A DNA stretch of 64,000 nt from an uncultured Candidatus Saccharibacteria bacterium (GTDB lineage: Bacteria; Patescibacteriota; Minisyncoccia; Phycocordibacterales; UBA5272), in assembly GCA_964512315.1 (NCBI GenBank), contig CAZEIK010000001.1:20408-84407 (forward strand), written 5' to 3'. Positions within the stretch are counted from its first letter, which is position 1. Each line of letters opens with the position of its first letter. Positions 9,160 to 60,476 of the stretch are shown here, one piece after another. The translations under genes and the position numbers were made by a program. The notes beneath the pieces are model-generated. The model was given only the letters and a program-made list of their open reading frames with translations. It searched no databases and had not been told where the DNA came from.

Positions 9160-10956
9160 ATGCAACAAGAAATTAGAAACATCGCCATCATTGCTCACGT
9201 AGACCACGGTAAGACAACTCTTACTGATGCGCTAATGAAGCAATGTGGCACAGGAGAAGAAGGATACACAATGGACTCGAATGCACTAGAGCAGGAGCGT
9301 GGTATTACTATTTATGCCAAGAACACATCAGTTGAATACAAGGGTGTGAAGATAAATATATTGGACACACCGGGTCACGCGGACTTTGGTTCTGAGGTGG
9401 AGCGTGTGCTCCGTTCAATTGACTCGGTACTTCTTCTTGTTGATGCTCAAGAAGGTCCAATGCCACAAACAAGATTCGTGCTTAAGAAGTCTCTTGAGTT
9501 AGGTCTTAAGCCTATTGTTGTAATAAATAAAATTGATAAGCCAGCGGGAGATCCAAAGCGTGTACATGATGAGGTATTTGAGCTATTTATGGAGCTTGGG
9601 GCTAATGACGAACAGCTAGACTTCACAACTGTGTATGCTATTGGTCGCCAAGGAGTTGCGATGAAGAATGTTGATGATGAGAAAGTTAATCTCGATCCGT
9701 TGCTAGACACAATCCTAGAAAAAGTTCCAAAGGCAACAGGAGATCAGAATAACAAATTCCGCGCACAGGTATTCAACTTGGCTTATGATAACTTCCTCGG
9801 TCGTATGGCAACAGCACGTATATATGACGGTAAGGTTAAGACAGGAGAGACTATAACAGTATTGAAGTCAACAGGTGAGTCTCGTACCGGCAAAGTCTCA
9901 AAGATGTTTGCGTTTCGTGGTGTGCAACGTGTAGAGGTTGAGGAGGGTATAGCCGGAGACATTGTGATGATAGCTGGATTCCCAGACATTTTCATTGGGG
10001 AGACATTCGCAGAAGATGCCACAGTCGAGCCAGTGAAGGCTATTAACATTGATGAGCCGACTATCGCGCTTTACTTCCTAGTTAATGATTCGCCATTCGC
10101 TGGTAAGGAGGGTAAGTTCGTAACCACAAGACAGATCAGAGACAGACTTGAAAAGGAGCTTGAGGTTAACGTTGGTATGCGTGTTAATTTTGACGGTGAC
10201 AGATATGAAGTGTTCGGTCGCGGTGAGATGCATATCTCGGTACTTTTGGAGACTATGCGTCGCGAAGGTTTTGAATTACAAGTGTCACAACCTAAAGTTA
10301 TTATTCATACATTAGCTGATGGGTCTAAAGAGGAGCCATATGAGGAGCTAGTTATCGATGTTCCAACTGAGCACAGTGGTATTGTTATGGAGAAGCTCGG
10401 TAAACGTAAAGGCATGATTACTGACATGCAAGAGAAAGATGGTATCACTCGTGTGAAGGCTGAGATACCAACTCGTGGGCTACTTGGTTATCGTGGTGAA
10501 TTTATAGTAGATACTAAAGGTCTTGGAATATTGTCATCACGCTTCATCAAGTTCGGCCCTTATGCAGGCAAGATTGATCGTCGTGACGTAGGCTCGATGA
10601 CAAGTATGGAGACAGGTAAGGCGCTAGGATTCTCACTTTGGAATCTTCAAGACAGAGGTGTGCTATATATTGGTCCAGCTACTGAGGTGTATGAAGGTAT
10701 GATCATTGGTAACACAAGTAAAGGCGAGGAGATGATTGTTAATCCAACTAAGGGTAAACAGTTAACTAATATGCGTGCCAGTGGGTCAGACGAAGCTATT
10801 ACTCTTGTGCCTCCATTTGAGATTACAATTGAGCGTGGTCTTGAGATCATGAATGACGATGAGTATCTCGAGATTACTCCTAAGTCAGTTAGATTGCGCA
10901 AGCAGCTATTAACTGAGAGTGAGCGTGCCAAAGCTAATCGTAAGAAAGAAGACTAA
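9160..10956 (+). CDS. typA: translational GTPase TypA/BipA
   Basis: AHVDHGKTT G1, DTPGH, NKIDK motifs; EF-G-like domains. Confidence 0.9.
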   Translation: MQQEIRNIAIIAHVDHGKTTLTDALMKQCGTGEEGYTMDSNALEQERGITIYAKNTSVEYKGVKINILDTPGHADFGSEVERVLRSIDSVLLLVDAQEGPMPQTRFVLKKSLELGLKPIVVINKIDKPAGDPKRVHDEVFELFMELGANDEQLDFTTVYAIGRQGVAMKNVDDEKVNLDPLLDTILEKVPKATGDQNNKFRAQVFNLAYDNFLGRMATARIYDGKVKTGETITVLKSTGESRTGKVSKMFAFRGVQRVEVEEGIAGDIVMIAGFPDIFIGETFAEDATVEPVKAINIDEPTIALYFLVNDSPFAGKEGKFVTTRQIRDRLEKELEVNVGMRVNFDGDRYEVFGRGEMHISVLLETMRREGFELQVSQPKVIIHTLADGSKEEPYEELVIDVPTEHSGIVMEKLGKRKGMITDMQEKDGITRVKAEIPTRGLLGYRGEFIVDTKGLGILSSRFIKFGPYAGKIDRRDVGSMTSMETGKALGFSLWNLQDRGVLYIGPATEVYEGMIIGNTSKGEEMIVNPTKGKQLTNMRASGSDEAITLVPPFEITIERGLEIMNDDEYLEITPKSVRLRKQLLTESERAKANRKKED

Positions 10957-13230: not shown

Positions 13231-15426
13231 ATGAAAACACATATACCTGTTAACATCGCTCCGAGCTTTAAAAAGATAATTAAACGTGACAGGTCACAAG
13301 TCTTGTTTGATAAGAATAAAATAGTGTTAGCAATAGCCAAAGCTGGGCATGCAACAAAAGAATTTGATTCTAATATGGCGGAATTGCTGGCAGATAAAGT
13401 TGTCACTTATCTAAACGGCATAGTTCAGGGTGATATTGTTCAAATAGAACAAGTTCAAGATGCTGTAGAGCACGTCCTGATGGTATCTCGTTTTAAAGCC
13501 ACAGCAAAAGCTTACATTTTATACAGAGAGCAACACGCAGAAATGAGAAGTTTTGCTACAATGTCATCACTCGGACTGGTTGATAATTATTTAGATAAGT
13601 TAGATTGGCAAGTAAAAGAGAATAGCAATATGGGTTATTCTCTACAAGGTTTGAACAATTACATCTTTTCAGAAGTTAGCAAAACATATTGGCTAAATAA
13701 AATATATCCAAAAGAAATACGTGACGCATACGAGGCCGGAGATATACATATACATGACTTGGGTACATTATCGATATATTGCGTTGGGTGGGACTTGATG
13801 GACTTGTTAATTACAGGCTTCAAAGGTGTTAGTGACAAGATAGAGTCAGCCCCAGCAAAGCATTTCCGTACTGCTTTGGGTCAAGTTGTGAACTTTATGT
13901 ATACGCTTCAAGGTGAAGCTGCTGGTGCGATAGCTTTTTCGAATTTCGATACATTGTTAGCACCTTTTATCCGTTATGACAACCTTAGTCAAAAAGATGT
14001 AAAGCAAGCTCTTCAAGAATTCGTCTTCAACATGAATGTTCCTACTCGTGTCGGTTTCCAGACCCCATTTTCTAATATAACTTTAGATTTGAACCCCTCT
14101 GTAAATTTCAAAGACACACCTGTAATAATAGGTGGTAAGGCACAAAAAGAAACTTATAGTGAATTTCAAAAAGAAATGGACATGTTCAACGAGGCTTTTT
14201 TTGAAGTCATGATGGAAGGCGACTCCGCAGGGAGAGTCTTTTCTTTCCCTATACCAACCGTAAACATAACAAAAGACTTTCAGTGGGATAATCCAAAATT
14301 AAAAGGATTGTGGGAGATAACTGCAAAATACGGTGTACCTTATTTTAGTAACTTTGTTAGCTCAGATATGAAGCCAGAAGACACCCGTTCTATGTGTTGT
14401 AGATTGCGTTTAGATTTAGAAGAGTTAGACAGAAGAGGCGGCGGGTTATTTGGAGCCAATGCACTTACAGGATCTGTTGGCGTGGTTACTGTTAACTTGC
14501 CTAGACTAGCTCATATTGCGAAGTCTAAAAACAAAGACTCTTTGGAGTTAGCAAAGAGAGACTTTTTCGCAAAACTCGATGAGCAGATGGATATTGCAAA
14601 AGAAAGCTTAGAAATAAAAAGAAAGTTATTAGAAAAGCTTACCGATGCTAACCTTTACCCATATACAAAGTTTTATCTTAGGAATATAAAAAGTGGTTTT
14701 GGTCAGTATTGGAAAAATCATTTCTCAACAATAGGTCTTATTGGCATGAATGAAGTATCTCTGAATCTTTTTGGAGAAAATATTGGTACACAGTCTGGTA
14801 GAGATTTTGCAGGAGAAGTTTTGGATCATATGAGGACAAGACTGGTCAAATATCAAAAAGAGACCGGGAATCTTTATAACTTAGAAGCGACTCCAGCCGA
14901 AGGAACATCCTTTCGTCTTGCTCTTAAGGATAAAAAAATGTATCCAGATATAGTTGTGGCAAATGAAAGTCTTTATAAAAAAGGAGCTAAACCTTTCTAT
15001 ACAAATTCTTCACATTTACCAGTTAATTATACAAATGACATTATTGAAACATTAAATATTCAAGATGGATTACAAACCAAGTACACAGGAGGTACAGTTA
15101 TACATTTATTTTTAGGAGAAAAGCTGACCGACTATCAATCTGTACCAAATCTTGTTAAGAAAATATGTGAGAATTATAAGTTGCCATATTTTACTATTAC
15201 GCCCACCTTCAGTGTGTGTCCTCAGCATGGCTATATATCAGGAGAATGTTTTAGCTGTGGTATGTGTGGGAACGTTTGTGAGGTCTATTCACGTATAGTT
15301 GGGTATCTCAGACCTGTTAGTCAGTGGAACGAAGGTAAACAAGCCGAGTACGATATAAGAGAAACTTATATAACAGAGCCCGTTCTTACTATTAATAGCA
15401 AAGACTTAACACAATTAGCTGCATAA
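13231..15426 (+). CDS. nrdD: anaerobic (class III) ribonucleoside-triphosphate reductase with N-terminal ATP-cone
   Basis: ATP-cone N-term, C-terminal Cys4 zinc ribbon and glycyl-radical motif RIVGY. Confidence 0.9.
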   Translation: MKTHIPVNIAPSFKKIIKRDRSQVLFDKNKIVLAIAKAGHATKEFDSNMAELLADKVVTYLNGIVQGDIVQIEQVQDAVEHVLMVSRFKATAKAYILYREQHAEMRSFATMSSLGLVDNYLDKLDWQVKENSNMGYSLQGLNNYIFSEVSKTYWLNKIYPKEIRDAYEAGDIHIHDLGTLSIYCVGWDLMDLLITGFKGVSDKIESAPAKHFRTALGQVVNFMYTLQGEAAGAIAFSNFDTLLAPFIRYDNLSQKDVKQALQEFVFNMNVPTRVGFQTPFSNITLDLNPSVNFKDTPVIIGGKAQKETYSEFQKEMDMFNEAFFEVMMEGDSAGRVFSFPIPTVNITKDFQWDNPKLKGLWEITAKYGVPYFSNFVSSDMKPEDTRSMCCRLRLDLEELDRRGGGLFGANALTGSVGVVTVNLPRLAHIAKSKNKDSLELAKRDFFAKLDEQMDIAKESLEIKRKLLEKLTDANLYPYTKFYLRNIKSGFGQYWKNHFSTIGLIGMNEVSLNLFGENIGTQSGRDFAGEVLDHMRTRLVKYQKETGNLYNLEATPAEGTSFRLALKDKKMYPDIVVANESLYKKGAKPFYTNSSHLPVNYTNDIIETLNIQDGLQTKYTGGTVIHLFLGEKLTDYQSVPNLVKKICENYKLPYFTITPTFSVCPQHGYISGECFSCGMCGNVCEVYSRIVGYLRPVSQWNEGKQAEYDIRETYITEPVLTINSKDLTQLAA

Positions 15427-15427
15427 T

Positions 15428-16117
15428 ATGTTATTTGGTGGTTTTGAAAAGTTCACTTTGATAGATTACCCAGGGAAAACTGCTTGTATGGTTTATACAG
15501 TAGGCTGCCCATTTCGTTGTCCATATTGTCACAACCCAGAGCTGGTAAGCCAGGTTTGCGAAACAAAGATTGACGAAGAAAAAGTTATAGATTTTTTAAG
15601 GTCTAGAGTTGGGCTATTGGATGGCGTCGTTATTACCGGCGGAGAGCCAAGTATGCACGGAGACAATTTGATAAATTTTATGAGAAGAGTTAAGCTGCTT
15701 AACTTTTCAATAAAGCTTGATTCCAATGGTGTCGATCCCAGCTTTTTACAAAAAGTTATTAAAGAAAATCTAGTTGATTATATAGCTATGGACATAAAGT
15801 CGCCGATGGTGAAATATATGCAAACAGTAAATAGGTCTGTGGATGTAGAAGCTATTCGCAAAAGTATAGAGTTAATTAAAAGTAGCGGTAAGGATTATGA
15901 GTTTAGGACGACCGTTCTCGATTCTTTATTATCATTTGATGATATAGATAAAATAGGTACAGAAATTTCTGGTGCCAAGAGATACTTTTTACAAAAGTTT
16001 GTATCAACAAAAACTCTTAATCCAAAGTTTGCTAAAAAGTCTACATACAAAGATGAAGATTTTATAAAAATGAAAACACTTATGGAAAGGTACGTAGACT
16101 TTTGTGGAATAAGATAA
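15428..16117 (+). CDS. nrdG: anaerobic RNR activating radical-SAM protein
   Basis: CPFRCPYCHN radical SAM CxxxCxxC motif; start 2 nt after nrdD stop. Confidence 0.85.
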   Translation: MLFGGFEKFTLIDYPGKTACMVYTVGCPFRCPYCHNPELVSQVCETKIDEEKVIDFLRSRVGLLDGVVITGGEPSMHGDNLINFMRRVKLLNFSIKLDSNGVDPSFLQKVIKENLVDYIAMDIKSPMVKYMQTVNRSVDVEAIRKSIELIKSSGKDYEFRTTVLDSLLSFDDIDKIGTEISGAKRYFLQKFVSTKTLNPKFAKKSTYKDEDFIKMKTLMERYVDFCGIR

Positions 16118-16120
16118 TTT

Positions 16121-16819
16121 ATGCTAGAAAACACAATTCAGTACATCGTTGTAAGAGTAGAAAAAGAAACGCATGATGTTTTTAGGTTAGGCCTGGCTCC
16201 AGAGGGCGGACTACTTAGTTATGTGGCAGGACAAGTTATTACAATATATTATCCAGAAGTTTCTAAAAATAAAGGCAAGGAATACAGTATCTCTAGTGCC
16301 CCAAGTGAGAATTGTTTTGAAATAACTGTAAAAAGAGTGGGAGTGTTTTCTGAGATGATTACTAGTAAAAAACCAGGGGATATTATTATCGGGTCCCTGC
16401 CTTATGGGTATTTTTATACAGAGTCAGAAGTTTCTGATTTGGTATTTTTAGCTGGAGGTATTGGAGTCGTGCCGTTCATGAGTATTATAGTAGAAACCTT
16501 GAAACTTAATCCAACTAGGAAGATTAGTCTTTTTTATTCTAATAAAAATCTCAAAGATATTGTGTTTAAAAGTAAGTTAGATAACTTGGTCAAGTTACAC
16601 AAAAGTAACTTTCATGTTTTTTATTATTTAACAAAGGAAGTATCGTGTGAGGCTGACACAAAGAGTGGCAGAATATCAGTCCAAGACGTTCTGCAATATT
16701 GTAACAACGAGACAGAGCTCTTTCTCTGTGGATCAAGCGGTTTTGTGTCTAGTTACTACAGGGCTCTTGTTCAAAATAACACATCAGAGCAAAACATTTT
16801 CACCGAAGAGTTTTCCTAG
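16121..16819 (+). CDS. FNR-family FAD/NAD(P)-binding oxidoreductase (Fpr-like ferredoxin/flavodoxin reductase module)
   Basis: R-x-Y-S FAD motif, GGIGVVP NAD(P) motif; positioned to follow nrdG. Confidence 0.6.
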   Translation: MLENTIQYIVVRVEKETHDVFRLGLAPEGGLLSYVAGQVITIYYPEVSKNKGKEYSISSAPSENCFEITVKRVGVFSEMITSKKPGDIIIGSLPYGYFYTESEVSDLVFLAGGIGVVPFMSIIVETLKLNPTRKISLFYSNKNLKDIVFKSKLDNLVKLHKSNFHVFYYLTKEVSCEADTKSGRISVQDVLQYCNNETELFLCGSSGFVSSYYRALVQNNTSEQNIFTEEFS

Positions 16820-16866: not shown

Positions 16867-18111
16867 ATGTATTCATATATTATATTTGAAATATTATCTT
16901 GGTTGTCTGGTCTTGTGGCTGCGATAGTTTTTTTGGAGCATTTATTAAAAAGAAAGTCTATTAGAGATTTTTTTAAAAGAAAGTGGGTATATATACCAAT
17001 TATAGTTTTGGTGTTGTCATATTTTGGTGGCGTTTTATCAGATAGAACTTATTCTCCTGGGTTTGCTATGCCTATGTTCATGCACACAATGGCTCCAGGC
17101 GGGGTAGCGCCGAATTTACCTTTCGCTAATGTGATTAACTTTTTTAAAAGCCAATCTAATTTTGAAAAGGTTTCAGATATAGGAAGAGATCCTAATGATG
17201 TGCCATCAGCCTTAAGTAGAGATACATCACAAGAAGTTAAGATAAATATAAATGTTAAAGAAGTTATAAGTGAGGTATCGCCAGGAATTTATTTTAATTA
17301 TTGGACATTTGATAATGCTGTACCTGGTCCAATGTATAGAGTAAGAGAAGGGGATACTATTATCATGTCTATAACCAACGACAAGACAAGTTTACATCAT
17401 CACAACATAGATCTTCATGCCGTGACAGGTCAAGGCGGAGGAGCCTCACTTACCGACGTTATGCCAGGAGAAACCAAAACATTTAAATGGAAAGCTCTCA
17501 ATCCTGGACTTTTTATTTATCATTGTGCCATGCCAAATGTGAGTACTCATAATTCGCATGGTCAATATGGCTTGATACTTGTTGAACCGAAAGAAGGGTT
17601 AGCAAAAGTAGACAAAGAGTTTTATGTGGTTCAGGGTGAACTTTATACAATGGGGGAAATAGGTAAAAAGGGGCTAACTATTTTTGATTCACAAGCCCTT
17701 GTTGATGGGCATCCGAATTATGTTACATTCAACGGTAAGATAGAAAGCTCGCCACGTATGCACGCAAAAGTCGGAGATAAAATACGTATTTATTTTGGTA
17801 ATGGTGGTGTTAACTTAATATCTTCATTCCATGTTATTGGTGAGATATTTGACAAAGTTTATCCAGAAGGCGCAATAGGTGAAGGTGGTGCGGTTTTAAA
17901 AAATGTTCAGACAACAGCTGTGTTGCCTGGTGGGTCTACAATCGTAGAGTTTAAGGTAGATGTTCCAGGTAAATATTTGTTAGTGGATCATGCTCTAGCT
18001 AGGATGAACAAGGGAGCCTGGGCGGTGTTAGAGGTCACAGGGTCTAGTACTCCAGAAATATATTCTCCAGTATATCAAGAGGGAGAGGATATGGAAGACA
18101 TGCAGCATTAG
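16867..18111 (+). CDS. nirK: copper-containing nitrite reductase (two-cupredoxin NirK) with N-terminal 2-TM anchor
   Basis: HHHNIDLHAVTGQGG (type 1/type 2 Cu His ligands) and YHCA...H...M type 1 Cu site; N-terminal hydrophobic helices. Confidence 0.75.
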   Translation: MYSYIIFEILSWLSGLVAAIVFLEHLLKRKSIRDFFKRKWVYIPIIVLVLSYFGGVLSDRTYSPGFAMPMFMHTMAPGGVAPNLPFANVINFFKSQSNFEKVSDIGRDPNDVPSALSRDTSQEVKININVKEVISEVSPGIYFNYWTFDNAVPGPMYRVREGDTIIMSITNDKTSLHHHNIDLHAVTGQGGGASLTDVMPGETKTFKWKALNPGLFIYHCAMPNVSTHNSHGQYGLILVEPKEGLAKVDKEFYVVQGELYTMGEIGKKGLTIFDSQALVDGHPNYVTFNGKIESSPRMHAKVGDKIRIYFGNGGVNLISSFHVIGEIFDKVYPEGAIGEGGAVLKNVQTTAVLPGGSTIVEFKVDVPGKYLLVDHALARMNKGAWAVLEVTGSSTPEIYSPVYQEGEDMEDMQH

Positions 18112-33130: not shown

Positions 33131-33838
33131 ATGGAAGCAAGAAAAGAGAATCAAGAGTTCGAGTTACTTTGCGCGCAATTAAATGACCCGAAAGTTCTTG
33201 AAGATTATAAACATTGTGATGATAATTATCGTCCAGCATTAGTGCCTAGGATGCTGGGCAAATTACTTGTAACCGCTGGTAACATTGTATATGGTTACAA
33301 GTCATCGTATTTAAAATTTAGAGCAGTGGAGGTTATTGCTCGCGTTCCTTATCATTCTTGGGACTCGGCAATGTTCACACTTCAGACAATGTTCTACTCT
33401 AATGAGAACAAGGCAATGCAATTATCTAAAATAGCCGAGTTCTCAAGAGTGGCAGCAGAGAATGAGACCATGCATGTAATAGTTATATCTAGCATTGCCA
33501 AAAAGGAGCACAAACGTGCTGGTATATTGAGGCACACTGTTATACCGATGTTATTCGCATTCTTCTATTTCTGGATGTCATATTTCTTATATATGATAAA
33601 GCCTAGATATTCATATGAGCTTAATTATCTTTTTGAACAACACGCATTCGACTCTTACAGTGAATTCTTAGAGCTTGATGGAGAGTCTTTAAAAAAGAAA
33701 ACAGTAGATAGTGAATTCTTGAGATGGTACGGACGCAATCCGATAAGTCAGTATGACTTTTTCTTGTCGGTTCGTAACGATGAGATAATACACAGAAATA
33801 CTTCTATAAGAGAGATTGAAAGAGTGGAGAGTATCTAA
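33131..33838 (+). CDS. alternative oxidase (AOX/PTOX-like membrane diiron carboxylate oxidase)
   Basis: four AOX signature boxes in order: VEVIARVP (LETVA), ENETMHV (NERMHL), EQHAFDSYSEFL (LEEEAxHSYTEFL), RNDEIIHR (RADEAHHR), with a hydrophobic interfacial segment between boxes 2 and 3. Confidence 0.7.
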   Translation: MEARKENQEFELLCAQLNDPKVLEDYKHCDDNYRPALVPRMLGKLLVTAGNIVYGYKSSYLKFRAVEVIARVPYHSWDSAMFTLQTMFYSNENKAMQLSKIAEFSRVAAENETMHVIVISSIAKKEHKRAGILRHTVIPMLFAFFYFWMSYFLYMIKPRYSYELNYLFEQHAFDSYSEFLELDGESLKKKTVDSEFLRWYGRNPISQYDFFLSVRNDEIIHRNTSIREIERVESI

Positions 33839-34400: not shown

Positions 34401-35108
34401 ATGGAACAAGTACTTCTACCTTTACACTTACTAAGTTTATTATATTGTATCGTTACAATAATACGTTCTGACCTGTTGGGGTCTAAATGGTTACGCGGCA
34501 AAATAGATACGATAAATAAAGACAAATTACAAAGCCTACACAAGCAAGCTTGGATAGGATTAATATTAATGATAGCCACAGGCTCGGTATTGTTCTATCA
34601 AAGTATGGACGTGTTACTTGCTTCAGCACCATTCTATGTCAAAATGGCGTGTGTTCTGGCATTAGTAATAAATGCTTTTGCAATAGGCAGGCTAATGAAA
34701 GTTGCTACAGAAAAGAAGTTCTCAGAAGTAAGTAAGGAGGTAAAGGTTAAATTATTTGTATCAGGGTTTGTTTCTATATTTTGTTGGATAATGGCAGCCA
34801 CAGCCGCATTCTTTATCTTGCCTGAAGGTGAAGATGCTGTACTTCCTATAATAGACAATCAATCAACAACAAAAACTTTTACACTAGCTGAAGTTGCTAC
34901 ACACGGAGGAGAGGACAGTTGTTATACAGCGATCAATGGTAATGTATACGACATAACAAAATACATATCATTGCATCCGGGAGGCAAGACTGCAATTATG
35001 AGAGTTTGTGGTAATGATGGAACTGCAACATTTACTCGTAAGCATGGTGACGATGAGAAGCCAAATTTGATTTTACGCAGCATGCAAGTAGGGGTGCTTA
35101 CTCAATAA
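34401..35108 (+). CDS. membrane protein with C-terminal cytochrome b5-like heme-binding domain
   Basis: 4 N-terminal TM helices; C-terminal YDITKYISLHPGG...GNDGTATF...KHG matches the cyt b5 HPGG fold signature with the second His. Confidence 0.6.
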   Translation: MEQVLLPLHLLSLLYCIVTIIRSDLLGSKWLRGKIDTINKDKLQSLHKQAWIGLILMIATGSVLFYQSMDVLLASAPFYVKMACVLALVINAFAIGRLMKVATEKKFSEVSKEVKVKLFVSGFVSIFCWIMAATAAFFILPEGEDAVLPIIDNQSTTKTFTLAEVATHGGEDSCYTAINGNVYDITKYISLHPGGKTAIMRVCGNDGTATFTRKHGDDEKPNLILRSMQVGVLTQ

Positions 35109-43064: not shown

Positions 43065-43094
43065 AATTATATGATTATAACATATTAATATTTC

Positions 43095-43245
43095 TTATCC
43101 CCTTCCTATATATATATACATATATATACTGTATAAGATGAGATCGCCTGTTCGTGGATTCACTTTATTAGAGCTAATAGTAGTCATAGCTATTATAGGA
43201 GTATTGTCAGTAATAATAATACCGAGTTTTAGGACGGCGCTGGAT
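43095..43245 (+). repeat. copy 1 of a duplicated ~150-200 bp pilin promoter + 5' CDS cassette (TTATCCCCTTCC box, interrupted TA tract, first ~35 codons)
   Basis: ~85% nucleotide identity to 54880-55030. Confidence 0.7.
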
Positions 43246-43932
43246 AGGGCTAATGATACAAAGTTGAAACAGTTTGCTATCACATTAGATAAGAAGAATG
43301 ACATTATAAATAAATATGATTTTGAAGAGGGTTCAGGATTGTTGTCAAAAGATAGCAATGTATATCAACGAAACAATTTAACCCTCCCAGGTTCTGGTGT
43401 TACATTTAGTCAAAATACATATTCTAGTTCCTCGGCTTACTCTTTACTATTTGATGGTACTAGTTTTGTTACTTCTCAAAATAACCTACCCGTTATTGAT
43501 GGCAAGTCATTTTCGGTGTCGGTTTGGGTTAAAAAAACTCAATCTGACCCATTGAAGAAAACCTTATTTGGTAAATATTCTGGCCTTAATGGATTAGTAT
43601 TTGTTTTTAATAATAATATATTTGCAGTTGAGCGAGCAGGTTTTGTGTCTTGTTCATTGCCATATTCCAGTGATACAAATTGGCATCATTATGTTTTTTC
43701 TTTTAACTCTAATTCAAACATGGGGGTTATTTATGTTGATTCAAAAAAAGAAAATCAATGTAATATGGGAGGGGTGTATGTTGGTAACGATACTCAGCCA
43801 ATAATTTTGGGTCCTGCTATTAATGCTACTTATATGGATGATTTAAGGTTCTTTGATAAGGATATACTTTCCAGTGAAGTGCAGAAGTTATATGCCGAAG
43901 GGCTCAGTAGTGGCAAGTTTGCGAACAGGTAA
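43138..43932 (+). CDS. type IV pilin-like protein (prepilin cleavage/methylation N-terminus) fused to a LamG/concanavalin-like domain
   Basis: MRSPVRG|FTLLELIVVIAIIGVLS class III leader with Glu+5; C-terminal jelly-roll-like region shared with the 54926 paralog. Confidence 0.7.
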   Translation: MRSPVRGFTLLELIVVIAIIGVLSVIIIPSFRTALDRANDTKLKQFAITLDKKNDIINKYDFEEGSGLLSKDSNVYQRNNLTLPGSGVTFSQNTYSSSSAYSLLFDGTSFVTSQNNLPVIDGKSFSVSVWVKKTQSDPLKKTLFGKYSGLNGLVFVFNNNIFAVERAGFVSCSLPYSSDTNWHHYVFSFNSNSNMGVIYVDSKKENQCNMGGVYVGNDTQPIILGPAINATYMDDLRFFDKDILSSEVQKLYAEGLSSGKFANR

Positions 43933-54879: not shown

Positions 54880-55030
54880 CTCTTATCCCCTTCCATATAT
54901 ATATATATATATATATACTCAAAACATGAGACATCATGTTCGAGGTTTTACTTTACTAGAGTTAATAGTAGTAATAGCTATAATAGGTGTATTGTCAGTA
55001 ATAATAATACCTTCATTCAAAACAGCATTA
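54880..55030 (+). repeat. copy 2 of the duplicated pilin promoter + 5' CDS cassette
   Basis: ~85% identity to 43095-43245 including the TTATCCCCTTCC box and first ~35 codons. Confidence 0.7.
54895..54917 (+). repeat. (AT)11 dinucleotide microsatellite in the pilin promoter, 8 nt upstream of the ATG
   Basis: uninterrupted ATATAT... 23 nt; the paralogous copy at 43107-43128 is interrupted by C. Confidence 0.9.
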
Positions 55031-55699
55031 AGTAGAGCTAATGATACAAAGTTAAAACAAAATATTACCAACATAATAAAAAGGTATGATGTAATTGCAA
55101 AATGGGAGTTAGAAGAAGGGTTCGGTAATATTGCCAAAGACACATCTATCAATCAAATAGATAATACAATACAGAATAATGCCACGATACCAGGCTCAGG
55201 AGTGACTTGGTCTACAGACACATATGCTAGCTCTTCACAGTATTCACTCGCATTTAATGGTACTAACTATTTAACTACAGTTAATAATACTTATCCAAAA
55301 TTAGATGGTTCGTCATTCTCTTTTTCGCTTTGGTTCAAGAGAACTGGAGGATTTGGTGTGGGAGACAGAATGCTTTTAGCTAAGGGCACCCATGGGACAA
55401 GGCAGTGTCTTGCTGTTGGATTTAGAGATGATGAGTTGATGATAGGTCCATGGGGTCCTGAGTATATGACAGGATTGCGTATTACGGATCAGAATTGGCA
55501 TAATCTTATGTTTAGTTTTGACGCTAGCACAAACATTGTGACCGCCTATGTAGACAACAGATTAATTGGACGAGGTAACTGGGGAGGGTCACTAGCAAAC
55601 ACAGATTCATATCCGCTAAGGATTGGTACTTATGGTGGTGGTAACTTTATAGGTAACATCGACGATGTTTATTATTTTAAAGATCTTATCGTTAAGTAA
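54926..55699 (+). CDS. type IV pilin-like protein with LamG/concanavalin-like domain (paralog of 43138-43932)
   Basis: identical MR..VRGFTLLELIVVIAIIGVLSVIIIPSF N-terminus; shared downstream blocks (GSGVT-S-TY-SSS, DG-SFS-S-W-K-T, NWH, YVD, DD-FFD). Confidence 0.7.
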   Translation: MRHHVRGFTLLELIVVIAIIGVLSVIIIPSFKTALSRANDTKLKQNITNIIKRYDVIAKWELEEGFGNIAKDTSINQIDNTIQNNATIPGSGVTWSTDTYASSSQYSLAFNGTNYLTTVNNTYPKLDGSSFSFSLWFKRTGGFGVGDRMLLAKGTHGTRQCLAVGFRDDELMIGPWGPEYMTGLRITDQNWHNLMFSFDASTNIVTAYVDNRLIGRGNWGGSLANTDSYPLRIGTYGGGNFIGNIDDVYYFKDLIVK

Positions 55700-55754
55700 A
55701 ATCTTGTGAACATATAAGTTTTACTGTTTTGTTTTGATGGTATAATTTTGTTAT

Positions 55755-56273
55755 ATGGCATTTCTGTCCCCAAGACAAATGGTTGACTTGTTAGACATAA
55801 CACCAGGGTCTACGGTGGTGGATTTGGGGTCTGGATCTGGAGCTTATGTGTATGAAGTTTGCAAAGTTAATGGCCCGCATGGAAGAGTAATAGCAGTAGA
55901 TATAGACAGAGATAAGTTACAAATGGTTGATTCCGCAGCTAAGATAGGCGGCTACAAAATAGATACATTACTAGCTGACCTAGATAAAAGCATTATTTTG
56001 CCTGATTATTTTGCTGATTACATTATCCTCGCTAACACTTTACACTTGGTTGATAACAAGCTTGGACTACTGCGTGAGTGCGCAAGAATGCTTTCTCCTA
56101 CTGGTTACATGTTGTTGGTTGACTGGAGTTCTGATTCTAATTTGGGACCAAAGAGTGATAAACTAGACAAGACGTCCCTTGTGGCATCTCTGGCTGCGGC
56201 CAAGTTACGTGTGAGACGCGAACTACCAGCCGGGGATCATCATTTTGGATTTATAATAGAACCGCTAAAATAA
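55755..56273 (+). CDS. class I SAM-dependent methyltransferase
   Basis: VVDLGSGSG motif I, acidic motif II (VDID), 172 aa. Confidence 0.6.
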   Translation: MAFLSPRQMVDLLDITPGSTVVDLGSGSGAYVYEVCKVNGPHGRVIAVDIDRDKLQMVDSAAKIGGYKIDTLLADLDKSIILPDYFADYIILANTLHLVDNKLGLLRECARMLSPTGYMLLVDWSSDSNLGPKSDKLDKTSLVASLAAAKLRVRRELPAGDHHFGFIIEPLK

Positions 56274-56274
56274 A

Positions 56275-57627
56275 ATGGACAAACCAAATATATTTAAAAT
56301 AGTAACAGTAGGAATAGGATTATTCATAGGAATATTTGCTATATTAGTTTTTAGTGGCAAGATACCAGGGTTAAGTAACTCCTCAACGGCTAATGCTAAT
56401 AAGCCAACGATAAATGTTTGGGGCACTATACCTGAGGACGCCTTTACTTCTGCTGCTTCAGAGATGTCTATTAGGACTGGTAAGCAGACATCTATTGCTT
56501 ATACATATATACCAGCTGAGCAATTCGCAGACAAGCTTTCTCGCGCTGTTGCGGTTAATTCTGCACCGGACCTAGTGCTAGCTCAGCATGACATATTGCT
56601 ATCAGTTAATAGCTTGCTGTACCCAATGTCTTATACTTACATGTCAGAATTGGAGTACAAAGACACTTTTGTAGACGCGACTCATGCATTTGCTTTGCCA
56701 TTCGGTGCCGTATTTTATCCAGTCTTAATCGACCCAGTAATCACTTTTTACAATCGTGGCATGTTAAGTCAAAAAGGTTTTACAACACCAGTTAAGACTT
56801 GGAATGATTTGGCAAAGTATCAAAAAGAGTTAACTGAGTACGATGTGAGTGGCAAGCCGAAACAGAGCGCTTTTGCAATAGGTGCTTACTTGAATGTTGC
56901 ATACGCCAAAGATATCTTAATGGCTATGATTATGCAGTTGGGCCATATTCCAGTTACTGCTATTTTCTACACAGATGCTAGTAACAAAATTGTCGGTAAT
57001 ATTAATACTGACGTCGGACTGGGTACAACAGGTGACGATACTGTTCCGGACTTGGTTAAGTTGCTCCGCTTCCAATCAGCCTTTAGCGACCCACAGAAGA
57101 CAACATTTACTTGGAGTGAGTCAGGTGACAGAGATATAAGCATGTTCTCAAGAGGACAATTGGCATTCTATTTTGGAAGAGCTAGTGACATGAATAAAGT
57201 TAGAGGTGTAAATAAAAACATAGATATAGGTATTACTTACTTCCCGCAATTCTCTGGCTCTAGTTTGGTTGTTACAAGTGGTTCAATATATGGAGCCGCT
57301 CCTGTTAAGACAACGTCTGATCCCGTTTATGCAATCTCAGTTGCTAGAAAGTTCTCAGATAATGTATTCTCGTCCGTGCTCTCTAGTGTGTTAGGTATGT
57401 CTTCAGCGAGACGTGACGTTCTGGCTGGTACTGATGGATCCGAGAGGGCAGAAGTCGTCGGTAGAAGTGCCCTAATTATGAAGAGTTTCTATGATCCTAA
57501 TCCTATCAACTCTAGCGCTCTGGTTAGAGGTCTGTATGACAATATATTATCGGGGCGCAAGTCAATATCAGAAGCGGTGGATGCATTTGATAGAGACTGG
57601 TCAAAATTATATACTAGTAACAAATAA
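56275..57627 (+). CDS. N-terminally anchored extracytoplasmic solute-binding-protein-like protein (SBP family 1-like)
   Basis: TM/signal anchor, then alpha/beta pattern resembling ABC substrate-binding proteins; no cognate permease or ATPase adjacent. Confidence 0.45.
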   Translation: MDKPNIFKIVTVGIGLFIGIFAILVFSGKIPGLSNSSTANANKPTINVWGTIPEDAFTSAASEMSIRTGKQTSIAYTYIPAEQFADKLSRAVAVNSAPDLVLAQHDILLSVNSLLYPMSYTYMSELEYKDTFVDATHAFALPFGAVFYPVLIDPVITFYNRGMLSQKGFTTPVKTWNDLAKYQKELTEYDVSGKPKQSAFAIGAYLNVAYAKDILMAMIMQLGHIPVTAIFYTDASNKIVGNINTDVGLGTTGDDTVPDLVKLLRFQSAFSDPQKTTFTWSESGDRDISMFSRGQLAFYFGRASDMNKVRGVNKNIDIGITYFPQFSGSSLVVTSGSIYGAAPVKTTSDPVYAISVARKFSDNVFSSVLSSVLGMSSARRDVLAGTDGSERAEVVGRSALIMKSFYDPNPINSSALVRGLYDNILSGRKSISEAVDAFDRDWSKLYTSNK

Positions 57628-57632
57628 AAATT

Positions 57633-58316
57633 ATGCCAGCTGATACAATAGACGGAAACACAACTAAGCTAGTAACTTGCGGTAATGTAGATCAGAAAGT
57701 TTGTCAGTTGTCGGATTTGTTTTCTGTGGCTAATTTGTTCGCAGAATATGTAATCAAGTTTTTCTTACCAACACTTTTCTTCGTCGGACTGTTCTTAACT
57801 TTTTGGCCTATAATTAAGAATCCGAGTTCAGCTGAAGCCTTAGCCGAAGCAAAAGGTAGATTCATTAAGCTATTAATAGGAACAGTCGTAGTGGTGGGGG
57901 CGTATCTTATTGTTAGGGTGGTTCTTCTGAGTATTGGAGTAGACAGCGGATCAGGTGTACTTCAAAAAGCTGTAGGCGGCAAGCCTTCTCTTAACGTTCC
58001 ATTTATAGAAAGAGTTTATGCAGCAGAAGACACTGAGAATACTGGTAAGTTCAATAATCCACTAGACTCTGTGTCTATTCAAACAGTAGTAGCCGGTATT
58101 GCGAACATTGTAGTTTATCTTGGTACTATTGGCGTTATTTATCTCTATATAAGAGGTGCTATGTATTTGGTTATGAGTCAAGAAAGGCCCGAGAATCTTT
58201 CCAAAGGTAAAAAGTATATATTTTGGGCTACGGTAATAGGGCTATGTATTTTTGGTGCTGAGATGATATATACTACTCTTGTAGATACAACCAATTCAAT
58301 TTTTAAAACTAAGTAA
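57633..58316 (+). CDS. tandem double 2-TM hairpin membrane protein (first and largest member of the hairpin family)
   Basis: two consecutive TM-loop-TM units; the second (GKKYIFWATVIGLCIFGAEMIYTTL) matches the family core. Confidence 0.4.
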   Translation: MPADTIDGNTTKLVTCGNVDQKVCQLSDLFSVANLFAEYVIKFFLPTLFFVGLFLTFWPIIKNPSSAEALAEAKGRFIKLLIGTVVVVGAYLIVRVVLLSIGVDSGSGVLQKAVGGKPSLNVPFIERVYAAEDTENTGKFNNPLDSVSIQTVVAGIANIVVYLGTIGVIYLYIRGAMYLVMSQERPENLSKGKKYIFWATVIGLCIFGAEMIYTTLVDTTNSIFKTK

Positions 58317-58319
58317 CAT

Positions 58320-58733
58320 ATGCTGAAAAACATTACAGATCTATTCGACGGACTTAACAAATTAATAGGTGGAGGAGTCACTACATTTTTAATGGGGCTA
58401 GCTTTTGTAGCCTTCCTCTTATCTATTATTAATTTTATTTGGAAGAGAAGGTCAGGAGATGGTGACGGTGTGCAAGATGCCAAGAACATGTTGGGCTGGA
58501 GTATTGTGGCGCTGTTTGTGATGACGGCGGTGTGGGGGTTGGTTACTTTTATAAGTTCTGCTCTGGGCGTGGACGGTCAGACAAGTATCAAACGCCCTCA
58601 GACAGTATTCACAAGCAGCTCGACTAACACAACAGGTAAAAAAGCAGCAGGTGAGACTTGTACAAACAACTCTGATTGTCAGAGTAATAGTTGTTACTTA
58701 GAAAAAACTTTAAGCAAGTACACTTGCCAATAA
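58320..58733 (+). CDS. 2-TM hairpin mini-protein, family member with Cys4 C-terminal tail
   Basis: TM1, loop KRRSGDGDGVQDAKNMLGW, TM2 SIVALFVMTAVWGLVTFIS; tail CTNNSDCQSNSC...KYTCQ. Confidence 0.5.
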   Translation: MLKNITDLFDGLNKLIGGGVTTFLMGLAFVAFLLSIINFIWKRRSGDGDGVQDAKNMLGWSIVALFVMTAVWGLVTFISSALGVDGQTSIKRPQTVFTSSSTNTTGKKAAGETCTNNSDCQSNSCYLEKTLSKYTCQ

Positions 58734-58746
58734 TTAATAAAATTCT

Positions 58747-59241
58747 ATGAAAAAAATAATTACAACTTTATCAATATTATCACTAGTTCAAGTAGTAGCG
58801 GCTCAGCAAGTTCTGAATAATGTCGAGACCATAGTCACAAAGTCATCCGGCATTATCGGTAGTGGAGTAACAGGCCTATTAATGGGTGTTACTTTTGTGG
58901 TGTTCCTAATATCTATCATTACATTCTTATTAAAGAGAAGATCTGGAGACGACAAGGGTCTACAAGATGCCAAGAATATGTTGGGCTGGAGCGTGATTGC
59001 TATGTTCGTTATGGTTGCTGTGTGGGGCTTGGTTACATTTATTTCTCAGACTTTTAATATAGGGCTCGGCGGGCAAGTTGCCAGACCTTCTGCTATCCCT
59101 ATAGAGAAAAATTCTAATCAACCTGGCGATACCCCAGGTTCTGGGTTAGGAGCTGTTGGTTCTGTTTGTAGTCAGCCCTCAGATTGTTTGAGTGGTAAGT
59201 GTACTGCAGCAGCTAATTCTTCTATAAAGACCTGTGATTAG
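58747..59241 (+). CDS. 2-TM hairpin mini-protein with signal peptide and Cys4 C-terminal tail
   Basis: signal peptide ...VVAAQQ; core KRRSGDDKGLQDAKNMLGWSVIAMFVMVAVWGLVTFIS; tail CSQPSDCLSGKC...KTCD. Confidence 0.5.
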   Translation: MKKIITTLSILSLVQVVAAQQVLNNVETIVTKSSGIIGSGVTGLLMGVTFVVFLISIITFLLKRRSGDDKGLQDAKNMLGWSVIAMFVMVAVWGLVTFISQTFNIGLGGQVARPSAIPIEKNSNQPGDTPGSGLGAVGSVCSQPSDCLSGKCTAAANSSIKTCD

Positions 59242-59243
59242 TT

Positions 59244-59555
59244 ATGACCACTTTAAAAGATTCTGTTAACTCAATAAGTGACTTCGTAGGTAACACTATT
59301 ACCAGCTTGCTTCTAACTGTTGCTGTTGCGGCATTCTTTTGGTCAGTAGTGATGTTTCTCTTCAATAGATCAAGAGGTAACACTGACGCGATGCAGGATG
59401 CTAAGAATAAGTTGCTGTGGAGTATTATCGGGCTATTTGTAATGTTTTCTATTTGGGGCATTATTACCTTTTTCCAAGAAGGTTTTGGAATAAAAGATAA
59501 AAACACTGTAAAAGTACCAAGTATTGAGGCTAGTTCTAACTCAGAGAGTAATTAA
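59244..59555 (+). CDS. 2-TM hairpin mini-protein, Ser-rich tail
   Basis: core NRSRGNTDAMQDAKNKLLWSIIGLFVMFSIWGIITFF. Confidence 0.5.
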   Translation: MTTLKDSVNSISDFVGNTITSLLLTVAVAAFFWSVVMFLFNRSRGNTDAMQDAKNKLLWSIIGLFVMFSIWGIITFFQEGFGIKDKNTVKVPSIEASSNSESN

Positions 59556-59642
59556 TACTTTAAGGGTTAAAGTGGACAAGCTATTGCTTATTAAAATTAA
59601 TATAGATACACTTAAGACTATACATATAGTATTTGTAAAATT

Positions 59643-60059
59643 ATGAAAAAAATTATTTCTTCTGTTACCGCTCTTGCTACTGTTGCAGTTGCTTCAGCTC
59701 AAACACAGCTTAATCTTCCTCAGGTTCCTCCTTCTGCTAACGGCGGATCACAAAGTAGTATTGGGCAAACTTTAATTAATATCGTTCTTCAATTCAAACA
59801 GATTTCAACCTTAGTTTACTCATCTCTGTTTGTTGTTGCTTTGATTTTATTCTTCTTCGGTATTTTCCAATACTTAGCACCAGGTAAAAGTGGTGAAGAC
59901 AGAAAGAAAGGTTATGAGTATATGGGCTTCGGTATCTTGGCTCTATTTGTGATGGTTGCTATCTGGGGACTTGTAACATTCATCTCTCAGACTCTTGGGG
60001 TAGGTATCGGTGGAGACATTATGACTCCTGGTGTACCAGTTAACGTTCGTACATATTAA
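59643..60059 (+). CDS. 2-TM hairpin mini-protein with signal peptide
   Basis: signal peptide ...VASAQTQ; core GKSGEDRKKGYEYMGFGILALFVMVAIWGLVTFIS. Confidence 0.5.
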   Translation: MKKIISSVTALATVAVASAQTQLNLPQVPPSANGGSQSSIGQTLINIVLQFKQISTLVYSSLFVVALILFFFGIFQYLAPGKSGEDRKKGYEYMGFGILALFVMVAIWGLVTFISQTLGVGIGGDIMTPGVPVNVRTY

Positions 60060-60071
60060 TTTACTCTAATC

Positions 60072-60407
60072 GTGCTCTCTTCTTTTATACAAGTCGTACA
60101 CGCTCAGGACGACTCAGGTGAGCCTATAGACGGCTTTACCGGTAACTCTGGAGTGGATACAATTTTATCTAAAATATTAACTGATGTAATCAGTCCACTT
60201 CTTGGTCTTGCAACTGTGCTCATGCTCGCATGGTTCATGTATGGAGTAGTCAGATTCATATTACTTAAAGATAAAAGTCCTGAAGAAGCAGATAGGGGCA
60301 AGAAACATTTAGTCTGGGGTGCTATAGGGTTATTTATAGCTACATCACTCTGGGGTATAATGGGATTCTTGGCTGACGTAACAGACTCAAATGTTTGGTT
60401 CAGATAA
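60072..60407 (+). CDS. 2-TM hairpin mini-protein, GTG start, truncated leader
   Basis: core KSPEEADRGKKHLVWGAIGLFIATSLWGIMGFL; reading frame continuous with the stop codon of the previous gene. Confidence 0.4.
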   Translation: MLSSFIQVVHAQDDSGEPIDGFTGNSGVDTILSKILTDVISPLLGLATVLMLAWFMYGVVRFILLKDKSPEEADRGKKHLVWGAIGLFIATSLWGIMGFLADVTDSNVWFR

Positions 60408-60413
60408 ATACTA

Positions 60414-60448
60414 AAAGGCGCCCAAGGCTTTGCCTTGGGCGCCTTTTA
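60414..60448 (+). terminator. rho-independent terminator closing the hairpin-protein array
   Basis: AAAAGGCGCCCAAGGC-TTT-GCCTTGGGCGCCTTTT. Confidence 0.8.
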
Positions 60449-60476
60449 GTATTTTGTGTTATTATATTTTCTATCT

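Follow-up and report, generated by a model that had tools for sequence, protein, structure and literature searches.

Patescibacteria, which rely on host cells, account for a large part of bacterial diversity, and their type IV secretion system (T4SS) is essential in the one species tested. Tandem arrays of small VirB2-like pilin genes have been described in this group. An analysis centred on virB4 neighbourhoods counted 441 arrays in 383 assemblies, with two to eleven pilin genes per array and a mean mutual identity of about 25% (PMC12102498). In Southlakia epibionticum, the T4SS cluster at the origin includes a six-gene array (SEML1_0014-0019), and this array is essential (PMC10633639). TM7x carries a similar T4SS-flanked 'Sec-secreted array' (PMC7427843). 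The role of the T4SS in these bacteria has been called completely unknown, nutrient acquisition being one proposal (PMC11665869). According to published surveys, which covered only the surroundings of virB4, ~40% of the genomes with both VirB4 and VirB2-like pilins have pilin genes elsewhere. In this study, we analyzed positions 54880–60448 of a 64-kb stretch of Saccharibacteria (TM7) chromosome, which is referred to as the window. In this region, six genes for predicted two-helix hairpin proteins follow the genes for a class I S-adenosylmethionine (SAM) methyltransferase (MTase) and a membrane-anchored solute-binding protein (SBP).

The array in the window shares several features with the described ones. 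Both consist of tandem small two-helix proteins of the PF18895/PF04956 type, some with signal peptides, and both are chromosomal with no relaxase nearby. The six low-identity genes also fall within the range of 2–11 tandem genes by which the VirB2 arrays of Patescibacteria are recognised. The setting is different. The described arrays were studied in the vicinity of virB4/virB6, several classes of them near dnaA, whereas the array in the window belongs to a gyrA-linked operon with SBP and MTase. The survey of arrays mentions neither a solute-binding protein nor an associated methyltransferase (PMC12102498), and we found no description of the MTase-SBP-array block in the searchable literature. 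The original prediction, made from the letters of the window, did not recognise the arrangement. This holds for the fixed partnership with SBP and MTase, which appears to be undescribed, but the hairpin arrays themselves are already known (PMC12102498, PMC10633639, PMC7427843). We also considered the Pam pilus of the Candidate Phyla Radiation (10.64898/2026.03.03.709456) and set it aside; the Pam pilins are immunoglobulin-like donor-strand-exchange proteins, and VirB2, SBP and MTase are unmentioned there.

Our comparison divides the stretch into two units. Unit 2 (55738–60451) is a predicted ancient operon of Patescibacteria, extending from its own -10 box to a strong terminator. The pilin-LamG gene in front of it forms a unit by itself. 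In the reading that we prefer, the hairpins would be used by a T4SS encoded elsewhere, the SBP would act as a receptor and the MTase as a modifying enzyme. We give this reading about an even chance of being right. The features of the stretch are as follows.

54895–54917, no strand assigned: perfect (AT)11.5 repeat in the promoter region of g1
54926–55699, + strand: g1, pilin-LamG protein, 257 amino acids (aa) (Pfam N_methyl 7e-8, Laminin_G_3 8e-11)
55738–55746, + strand: extended -10 box TGGTATAAT, 8 nt before the ATG of the MTase gene
55755–56273, + strand: g2, class I SAM methyltransferase, 172 aa (Pfam)
56275–57627, + strand: g3, SBP with a transmembrane (TM) anchor, 450 aa (Pfam, AF2, Foldseek)
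57633–58316, + strand: g4, predicted tandem double VirB2-like hairpin, 227 aa, 4 TM (PF18895 1.6e-4, half-against-half alignment)
58320–58733, + strand: g5, predicted VirB2-like hairpin with a Cys-knot tail, 137 aa
58747–59241, + strand: g6, predicted VirB2-like hairpin with a signal peptide (..VAAQ) and a Cys-knot tail, 164 aa
59244–59555, + strand: g7, predicted VirB2-like hairpin, 103 aa (PF18895 5.4e-10, 39.6 bits)
59556–59642, + strand: 87-nt spacer before g8 with promoter-like hexamers (TATAGT 12 nt before the ATG)
59643–60059, + strand: g8, predicted VirB2-like hairpin with a signal peptide, 138 aa
60072–60407, + strand: g9, predicted VirB2-like hairpin with a signal peptide, 111 aa (PF18895 5.7e-11, 42.8 bits)
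60409–60451, + strand: intrinsic terminator, a hairpin with a 3-nt loop on a perfect stem of 20 bp (11 G-C pairs), followed by a T-run

The nine open reading frames (ORFs) at 54926–60407 are all on the + strand, and the intergenic gaps from g1 to g9 are, in order, 55, 1, 5, 3, 13, 2, 87 and 12 nt. Upstream lie gyrA and a DUF167 gene on the opposite strand; downstream lies the glycyl-tRNA synthetase gene. The positions of the genes, gaps, (AT)n tract and terminator in the original prediction were confirmed, and its domain calls were upheld (N_methyl with Laminin_G_3 in g1, a class I MTase, and SBP_bac_8 at 43.5 bits, the cutoff being 27). When the two halves of the 227-aa protein were aligned, it was also confirmed as a tandem double hairpin. 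The count of nine genes before 59555 was inaccurate; seven genes precede this position, and nine is the overall total.

The hairpin proteins provide the link to T4SS. These 'hairpin mini-proteins' of the original prediction are present as described, but they can be identified as members of the T4SS_pilin family, PF18895, which matches all six. g7 and g9 reach 39.6 and 42.8 bits, above the cutoff of 26.6, and g4, g5, g6 and g8 remain below it at 19.7–23.1 bits. NCBIfam NF045849 (pilin-like conjugal transfer protein) likewise matches all six, below its cutoff. By tblastn, g5–g9 are mutual paralogs (g5–g8 against g7: about 1e-6 to 1e-36), and g4 is linked to the family only through its own sub-threshold PF18895 match (1.6e-4). 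Identities within the array are low, 22–46% by tblastn where detectable and 14–20% in the alignment. Arrays from related loci exceed the gathering score of 27.9 for the TrbC/VirB2 family PF04956, with 34.8 bits in locus L017 and 28.4 bits in locus L021. In the alignment, the proteins show two hydrophobic helices with a short basic loop between them, which is the topology of VirB2/TrbC, and the AF2 model of g9 is a helical hairpin (helices 26–65 and 70–104). The signal peptides are cleavable, ending in AAQ (g6), SAQ (g8) and HAQ (g9). A word-indexed homolog search with g9 found five close relatives only. On these similarities, we identify the six hairpins as VirB2/TrbC-like T4SS pilins. A pertussis-toxin analogy has been drawn for the TM7x array (PMC7427843); we set it aside because the proteins are VirB2-like.

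The C-terminal tails provide information on the orientation of these proteins. The tail of g5 carries a four-cysteine knot, C-x5-C-x4-C-x10-C, and the middle members of the arrays carry C-terminal knots of the form C-x5-C-x4-C-x9-10-C (window 58659–58733 and 59167–59241; also L003, L005 and L007). The gene at 10328–11401 of L009 encodes a hairpin followed by two PG_binding_1 domains. With cysteine-knot and peptidoglycan-binding tails of this kind, the C-terminus would lie outside the cell, as it does in VirB2. A DsbB is encoded in the window. We notice that the outward-facing tails are the variable, decorated part of the array proteins; in L009 and L018, hairpins are fused to long extracellular regions.

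To define the conserved part of the stretch, we compared 15 distinct loci. Twelve of them were found via the SBP (the window, L002–L005, L007, L009–L012, L017 and L018) and three, L019–L021, independently via the MTase. The context of the loci was drawn from exact-protein look-ups. A scan of a genome collection gave only three close relatives, the close relatives being metagenome-assembled genomes labelled Candidatus Saccharibacteria, and a metagenome scan with a narrower SBP alignment gave only four short contigs. The source labels of the loci are Saccharibacteria, Nomurabacteria, Wolfebacteria and Paceibacterota, and the identity of the SBP to that of the window ranges from 81% down to 28%. 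In all 15 loci, the order is MTase, SBP, and then five to nine genes of the PF18895 type, with no insertion inside the block. The spacing between MTase and SBP extends from a 4-nt overlap (L012, L018) up to 265 nt, and that between SBP and the first hairpin gene is 2–131 nt. Insertions are found between gyrA and MTase: a PemK toxin gene in L005, TrmB and three genes in L009, four genes in L011, and DUF167 and pilin-LamG in the window. The downstream neighbour varies as well, being the glycyl-tRNA synthetase in Saccharibacteria and other genes elsewhere. Thus, of the synteny proposed for the whole block, the part comprising MTase, SBP and hairpin array is confirmed in every locus, and the part concerning pilin-LamG is not, since this gene is absent from L003 and relocated in L004.

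The array itself has a conserved order. In L002, L003, L005 and L007, each hairpin gene best matches the window gene at the same position, giving a diagonal best-hit table. The best matches in L005, for example, are 174 (g4), 121 (g5), 99 (g7), 137 (g8) and 89 bits (g9), against 25–94 bits for the other window paralogs. The positional orthologs of g4 score 165–334 bits in the same four loci, and g4 is always the first array gene in the loci of Saccharibacteria. In loci of the Paceibacteria type, the first array gene is g4-like and the last is g9-like, the final array gene of L009, L010, L012 and L018 matching g9 best. The g8-type tail (...TPGVP...Y or ...P...Y) also recurs in these arrays. Published accounts tend to read the arrays as variant copies for host range or antigenic variation. 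In contrast, the paralog types in the window are old and stand in fixed order. Since the types are kept in order, the array fits better with a heteromeric assembly of specialised subunits than with interchangeable variants, as judged by these best-hit patterns.

Next, we consider where the operon begins. A TATAAT-like box ends 5–10 nt before the start codon in 20 of the 59 genes of the window (6–9 nt in 18), and a Shine-Dalgarno motif precedes only one of the 59. Because near-start boxes are many and Shine-Dalgarno motifs are rare, the first genes of transcription units in the window appear to be predominantly leaderless. Such a box, TATACT at 54914–54919, lies 6 nt before the ATG of g1, and the extended -10 box TGGTATAAT lies in front of the MTase gene. 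By this pattern, g1 and the MTase gene would each begin a separate unit, and the extended box is likely the leaderless promoter of the conserved operon, which most likely starts there. A comparable box precedes the MTase gene in L002, L003, L004, L012, L017, L020 and L021, and the one in L017 comes after an obvious gyrA terminator. In the window scan, no such box was found before the SBP gene, g4–g7 or g9. A generic promoter scan was not beyond chance, with 23 hits against 19.3 expected. At the other end, the terminator is far above chance expectation. Rfam gave no riboswitch or leader RNA; its near-hits were spurious hairpin matches to the terminator only. We notice that a spacer of 73–133 nt before the g8-type gene is also present in L002 (4572–4644), L003 (13387–13462), L005 (11768–11853) and L007 (11569–11701), which could be an internal promoter or a processing site.

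The pilin-LamG gene does not belong to this operon. g1 encodes a type IV pilin with a class III signal (RG/FTLLELIVV, that is, G/FxxxE followed by a hydrophobic helix; N_methyl 7e-8, TIGR02532 29 bits against 16.3) and a LamG/ConA-like head (Laminin_G_3 8e-11). In L003, of which the SBP is 72% identical to that of the window, there is no pilin-LamG gene, and gyrA, DUF167 (- strand) and MTase are in direct succession. In L004, it sits between gyrA and the opposite-strand DUF167 gene and is therefore cut off from MTase. It was not found in any of the more distant loci. A paralog at 43138–43932 of the window (264 aa, 44% identical to g1, with the first 45 residues nearly identical) stands alone, flanked by trxB-like and ftsZ genes. 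Both g1 and the paralog (region 43090–43932) are preceded by the element CTTATCCCCTTCC-(TA)n-TATACT. Since this element is common to both and g1 is not syntenic, the (AT)n promoter travels with the pilin-LamG gene. Judging from these comparisons, pilin-LamG is a lineage-specific neighbour outside the conserved operon; it has at least one paralog elsewhere in the window and forms a self-contained unit (54895–55699).

The original prediction had instead placed all nine genes in one operon driven by the (AT)n promoter, which would build a new surface appendage or adhesion system. All genes do lie on the same strand, and with only 55 nt and no terminator between pilin-LamG and MTase, read-through from g1 is possible, though not required. 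The distribution of pilin-LamG, its stand-alone paralog with the same upstream element, and the conserved -10 box of the MTase gene contradict conservation of the nine genes under one promoter and leave co-transcription from the (AT)n promoter unsupported. We regard this explanation as highly improbable. By its class III signal (G/FTLLE) and ConA/LamG domain, g1 resembles minor pilins or adhesins of type IV pili with a lectin-like head. Unlike these, it is an isolated gene outside the conserved block without PilB/C/D/M; neither PilB nor PilC was found among the scanned ORFs of the window. The TA tracts are variable in length and overlap the -10 box, which could make the expression of pilin-LamG phase-variable.

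The SBP of the conserved operon belongs to the MalE/UgpB (SBP_bac_1/8) type (PF13416, SBP_bac_8). Its AF2 model, based on an alignment of 28 sequences (pLDDT 89, pTM 0.84), contains an N-terminal helix (6–27), a disordered linker (31–41) and a two-lobe binding-protein fold. The best Foldseek matches of the model are the oligosaccharide SBPs Atu4361 (sucrose/maltotriose), MnBP1 and MalE (E ~1e-20, ~15% identity), with sugar SBPs matched at E 7e-20 and TM-scores of 0.65–0.75. W49, Y76, D99, N160, W176, W280, Y299 and Q325 are invariant, and several of these are aromatics typical of sugar clefts. The invariant aromatic and polar residues are compatible with the binding of a small ligand in the inter-lobe cleft. 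Among 1.84 billion representative proteins, the search with this SBP gave 516 hits or clusters at E<=1e-30 and only 1,850 at E<=1e-3, and the hits of the subfamily are all 420–460 aa long and align from the anchor onward. By this search, the SBP forms a sharply delimited subfamily.

The window SBP shares with cluster-B/D carbohydrate SBPs (MalE, UgpB, Atu4361, MnBP1) the type II periplasmic-binding fold, the SBP_bac_1/8 motifs and the conserved aromatics. Its membrane tether is also shared with the SBPs of ABC (ATP-binding cassette) importers in monoderms. It differs from the latter in two ways. First, it has no permease or ATPase gene nearby in any locus. The original prediction had noted the lack of an ABC importer permease or ATPase beside the SBP-like gene; this is confirmed at the locus, and within about 8 kb such genes occur at none of the 15 loci. 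The only ABC genes among the scanned ORFs of the window encode an exporter-type fused protein and an ABC-F protein. Second, the window SBP represents a distinct subfamily with a sequence-conserved TM anchor instead of a lipobox. The anchor (residues 1–31, window 56275–56370) ends in a conserved (V/I)FSG(K/A)IP motif, which is lipobox-like without the cysteine and is kept from Saccharibacteria to the Paceibacteria-type homologs. The mean top-residue frequency is 0.54 in the anchor and 0.48 in the domain. The conservation of the anchor thus equals or exceeds that of the domain, which would be unusual if the anchor were a passive tether and suggests that it makes contact within the membrane.

The MTase is a minimal cytoplasmic class I SAM-dependent enzyme (Pfam Methyltransf_31/11/25, 6e-13 to 2e-11). 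The DLGSGSG of motif I is conserved in all aligned orthologs, and the conserved motifs comprise an N-terminal F..P, DxGxGxG, E..R.L.P.G..L...W (motif III ending in W) and a C-terminal AG.(H/Y)H. Its nearest solved structure, 3dh0, is itself of unknown function. ArsM, UbiE and phosphoethanolamine N-methyltransferase were considered as identities and rejected, as these generic NCBIfam or PDB matches are all far below cutoffs. Conjugative pilins have maturation factors of their own, such as the N-acetylase TraX, the chaperone TraQ and the cyclase TraF, and conjugative pili can be pilin-phospholipid assemblies. The locus has in common with the VirB2/TrbC/TraA systems that pilins are encoded together with a modifying enzyme, and that the pilins are predicted hairpins of two hydrophobic helices, whose short basic loop faces the cytoplasm and whose two termini face outward. 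It differs in that the cell is a monoderm, that six distinct subunits replace one major pilin, and that no VirB5-like tip protein is present. The accompanying enzyme here is a SAM methyltransferase, whose action on the pilins is putative.

On this basis, we propose how the components may work together. The hairpins would insert into the membrane with both ends outside, an orientation supported by the signal peptides, the disulfide-knot tails and the peptidoglycan-binding tails in a relative. T4SS machinery (VirB4/VirB3/VirB6-like) encoded elsewhere would draw them into a heteromeric pilus or an envelope-spanning conduit at the host interface. The SBP, held by its conserved anchor, may capture or sense a host-derived, carbohydrate-like ligand at the base of this structure, and the MTase may modify one component, either the cytoplasmic loop of a pilin or the lipid partner of the pilins. 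ChvE-VirA senses sugar for the Agrobacterium T4SS, and PrgZ captures pheromone for pCF10. Both cases tie an extracytoplasmic binding protein to a T4SS or to conjugation, providing a precedent for the sensing of a partner's signal by an SBP. In contrast to the present locus, ChvE and PrgZ belong to other SBP families and act via a sensor kinase or the Opp permease, and the locus itself encodes no transducer. The likeness is one of analogy, not homology.

Several results weigh against this proposal. VirB3, VirB4, VirB6 and VirD4 are missing among the scanned ORFs of the window, and within about 8 kb none of the 15 loci shows T4SS machinery or a VirB4-type gene that can be recognised; several unannotated neighbour genes were re-scanned and likewise gave no VirB4-type or ABC match. 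With no machinery nearby, the connection to a T4SS is drawn from pilin homology alone. Foldseek with the g9 model against the PDB returned generic helical hairpins only (E about 1) and no solved conjugative pilin, and a PDB profile search with the hairpin alignment gave nothing meaningful, again with no solved conjugative pilin. Such uninformative searches are expected for a simple helical-hairpin fold. The MTase shows no diagnostic similarity to any enzyme of known substrate among the NCBIfam equivalogs and the PDB. In addition, synteny over the same phylogenetic range extends to the housekeeping flanks S1, Lactamase_B_3 and gyrA. The region is thus poor in rearrangement, and adjacency becomes weaker evidence of shared function. 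Some gaps between MTase and SBP are long (128 nt in L017, 265 nt in L021). Finally, in its canonical fold and ordinary SBP_bac_1/8 motifs the SBP resembles the SBPs of common transporters, and it could work for an ABC importer whose genes lie elsewhere.

The last three points favour another explanation, namely that the SBP is the orphan receptor of a conventional ABC sugar importer whose other genes lie elsewhere, that the MTase is a housekeeping enzyme with no relation to it, and that the two adjoin the array because the gyrA region is rarely rearranged in the small genomes of Patescibacteria. We consider this possible but doubtful. The association is found in 15 of 15 loci, even where gyrA has moved away (L007, L011), insertions occur outside the block only, and in most loci the neighbouring genes of the block overlap or are separated by short gaps. 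MTase is preceded by a single -10 box of the promoter type, and SBP and g4–g7 by none. The sequence conservation of the membrane anchor and the lack of an importer permease in the window or any locus also speak against an importer subunit. S. epibionticum ML1 offers a further comparison. Its annotation table contains no PF13416/PF01547 SBP, its sole PF08241 match is a 408-aa THUMP methylase, and the genes after gyrA differ from the block. In this single genome, SBP and the small MTase appear to be absent together, which also weighs against this explanation.

The absence of T4SS genes near any of the loci fits a different explanation, in which hairpins recruited from VirB2 ancestry form a T4SS-independent heteromeric channel or scaffold. 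Here, the 14 TM helices of g4–g9 together with the anchored SBP would serve uptake or sensing without a pilus. The individually conserved and ordered paralog types, as for a complex of fixed stoichiometry, the conserved SBP anchor and the lack of an ABC partner would suit such a complex. Against it, no energising component is present, and the external cysteine-knot and peptidoglycan-binding tails are more readily explained by a structure that is extruded or spans the wall than by a compact channel. Moreover, the six-gene array of S. epibionticum lies in the T4SS cluster and is essential together with the machinery, which argues that such arrays serve the T4SS (PMC10633639). We therefore think the channel unlikely, and continue to prefer pilins used by a T4SS encoded elsewhere.

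A bolder idea, which we rate slightly lower than the channel, is a T4SS-derived import device. The SBP would load a host compound into the six-subunit VirB2-like conduit, and the MTase would process the cargo or a pilin-bound lipid. Compounds of two kinds that this SBP class typically binds, oligosaccharides and glycerophospho head groups, would be candidate cargoes. If true, such a device would explain the essentiality of the T4SS in auxotrophic epibionts and would be the first binding-protein-dependent T4SS. More generally, the pairing of MTase and SBP with VirB2-like proteins may hint at the function of the essential, unexplained T4SS of epibionts, and the operon may account for some of the pilin genes that lie away from virB4 in published surveys. 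It also offers several handles: a soluble ectodomain for ligand screens, an enzyme product accessible to mass spectrometry, and a six-subunit set for structure prediction or cryo-EM.

We notice several minor features around the block. The listed GTG start of the glycyl-tRNA synthetase gene (60456) is only 4 nt past the terminator hairpin; the true start is probably the ATG at about 60477 (MAQNKQ...). In one lineage of Saccharibacteria, the MTase operon is separated from gyrA by an inserted PemK-family toxin gene (L005 6875–7273, L006 4654–5052). The gyrA gene of a Paceibacteria-type genome (L018 3764–7405) carries an intein (Intein_splicing), with a 1,213-aa product. The remaining scanned ORFs of the window with a family match belong to housekeeping and general metabolism, except for the second pilin-LamG gene. 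Oxygen and redox genes are found at 16867–18111, 33131–33838, 34401–35108 and 13231–16819 of the window, encoding multicopper-oxidase-domain, alternative-oxidase-like and cytochrome b5-domain proteins and NrdD/NrdG with a FAD/NAD reductase.

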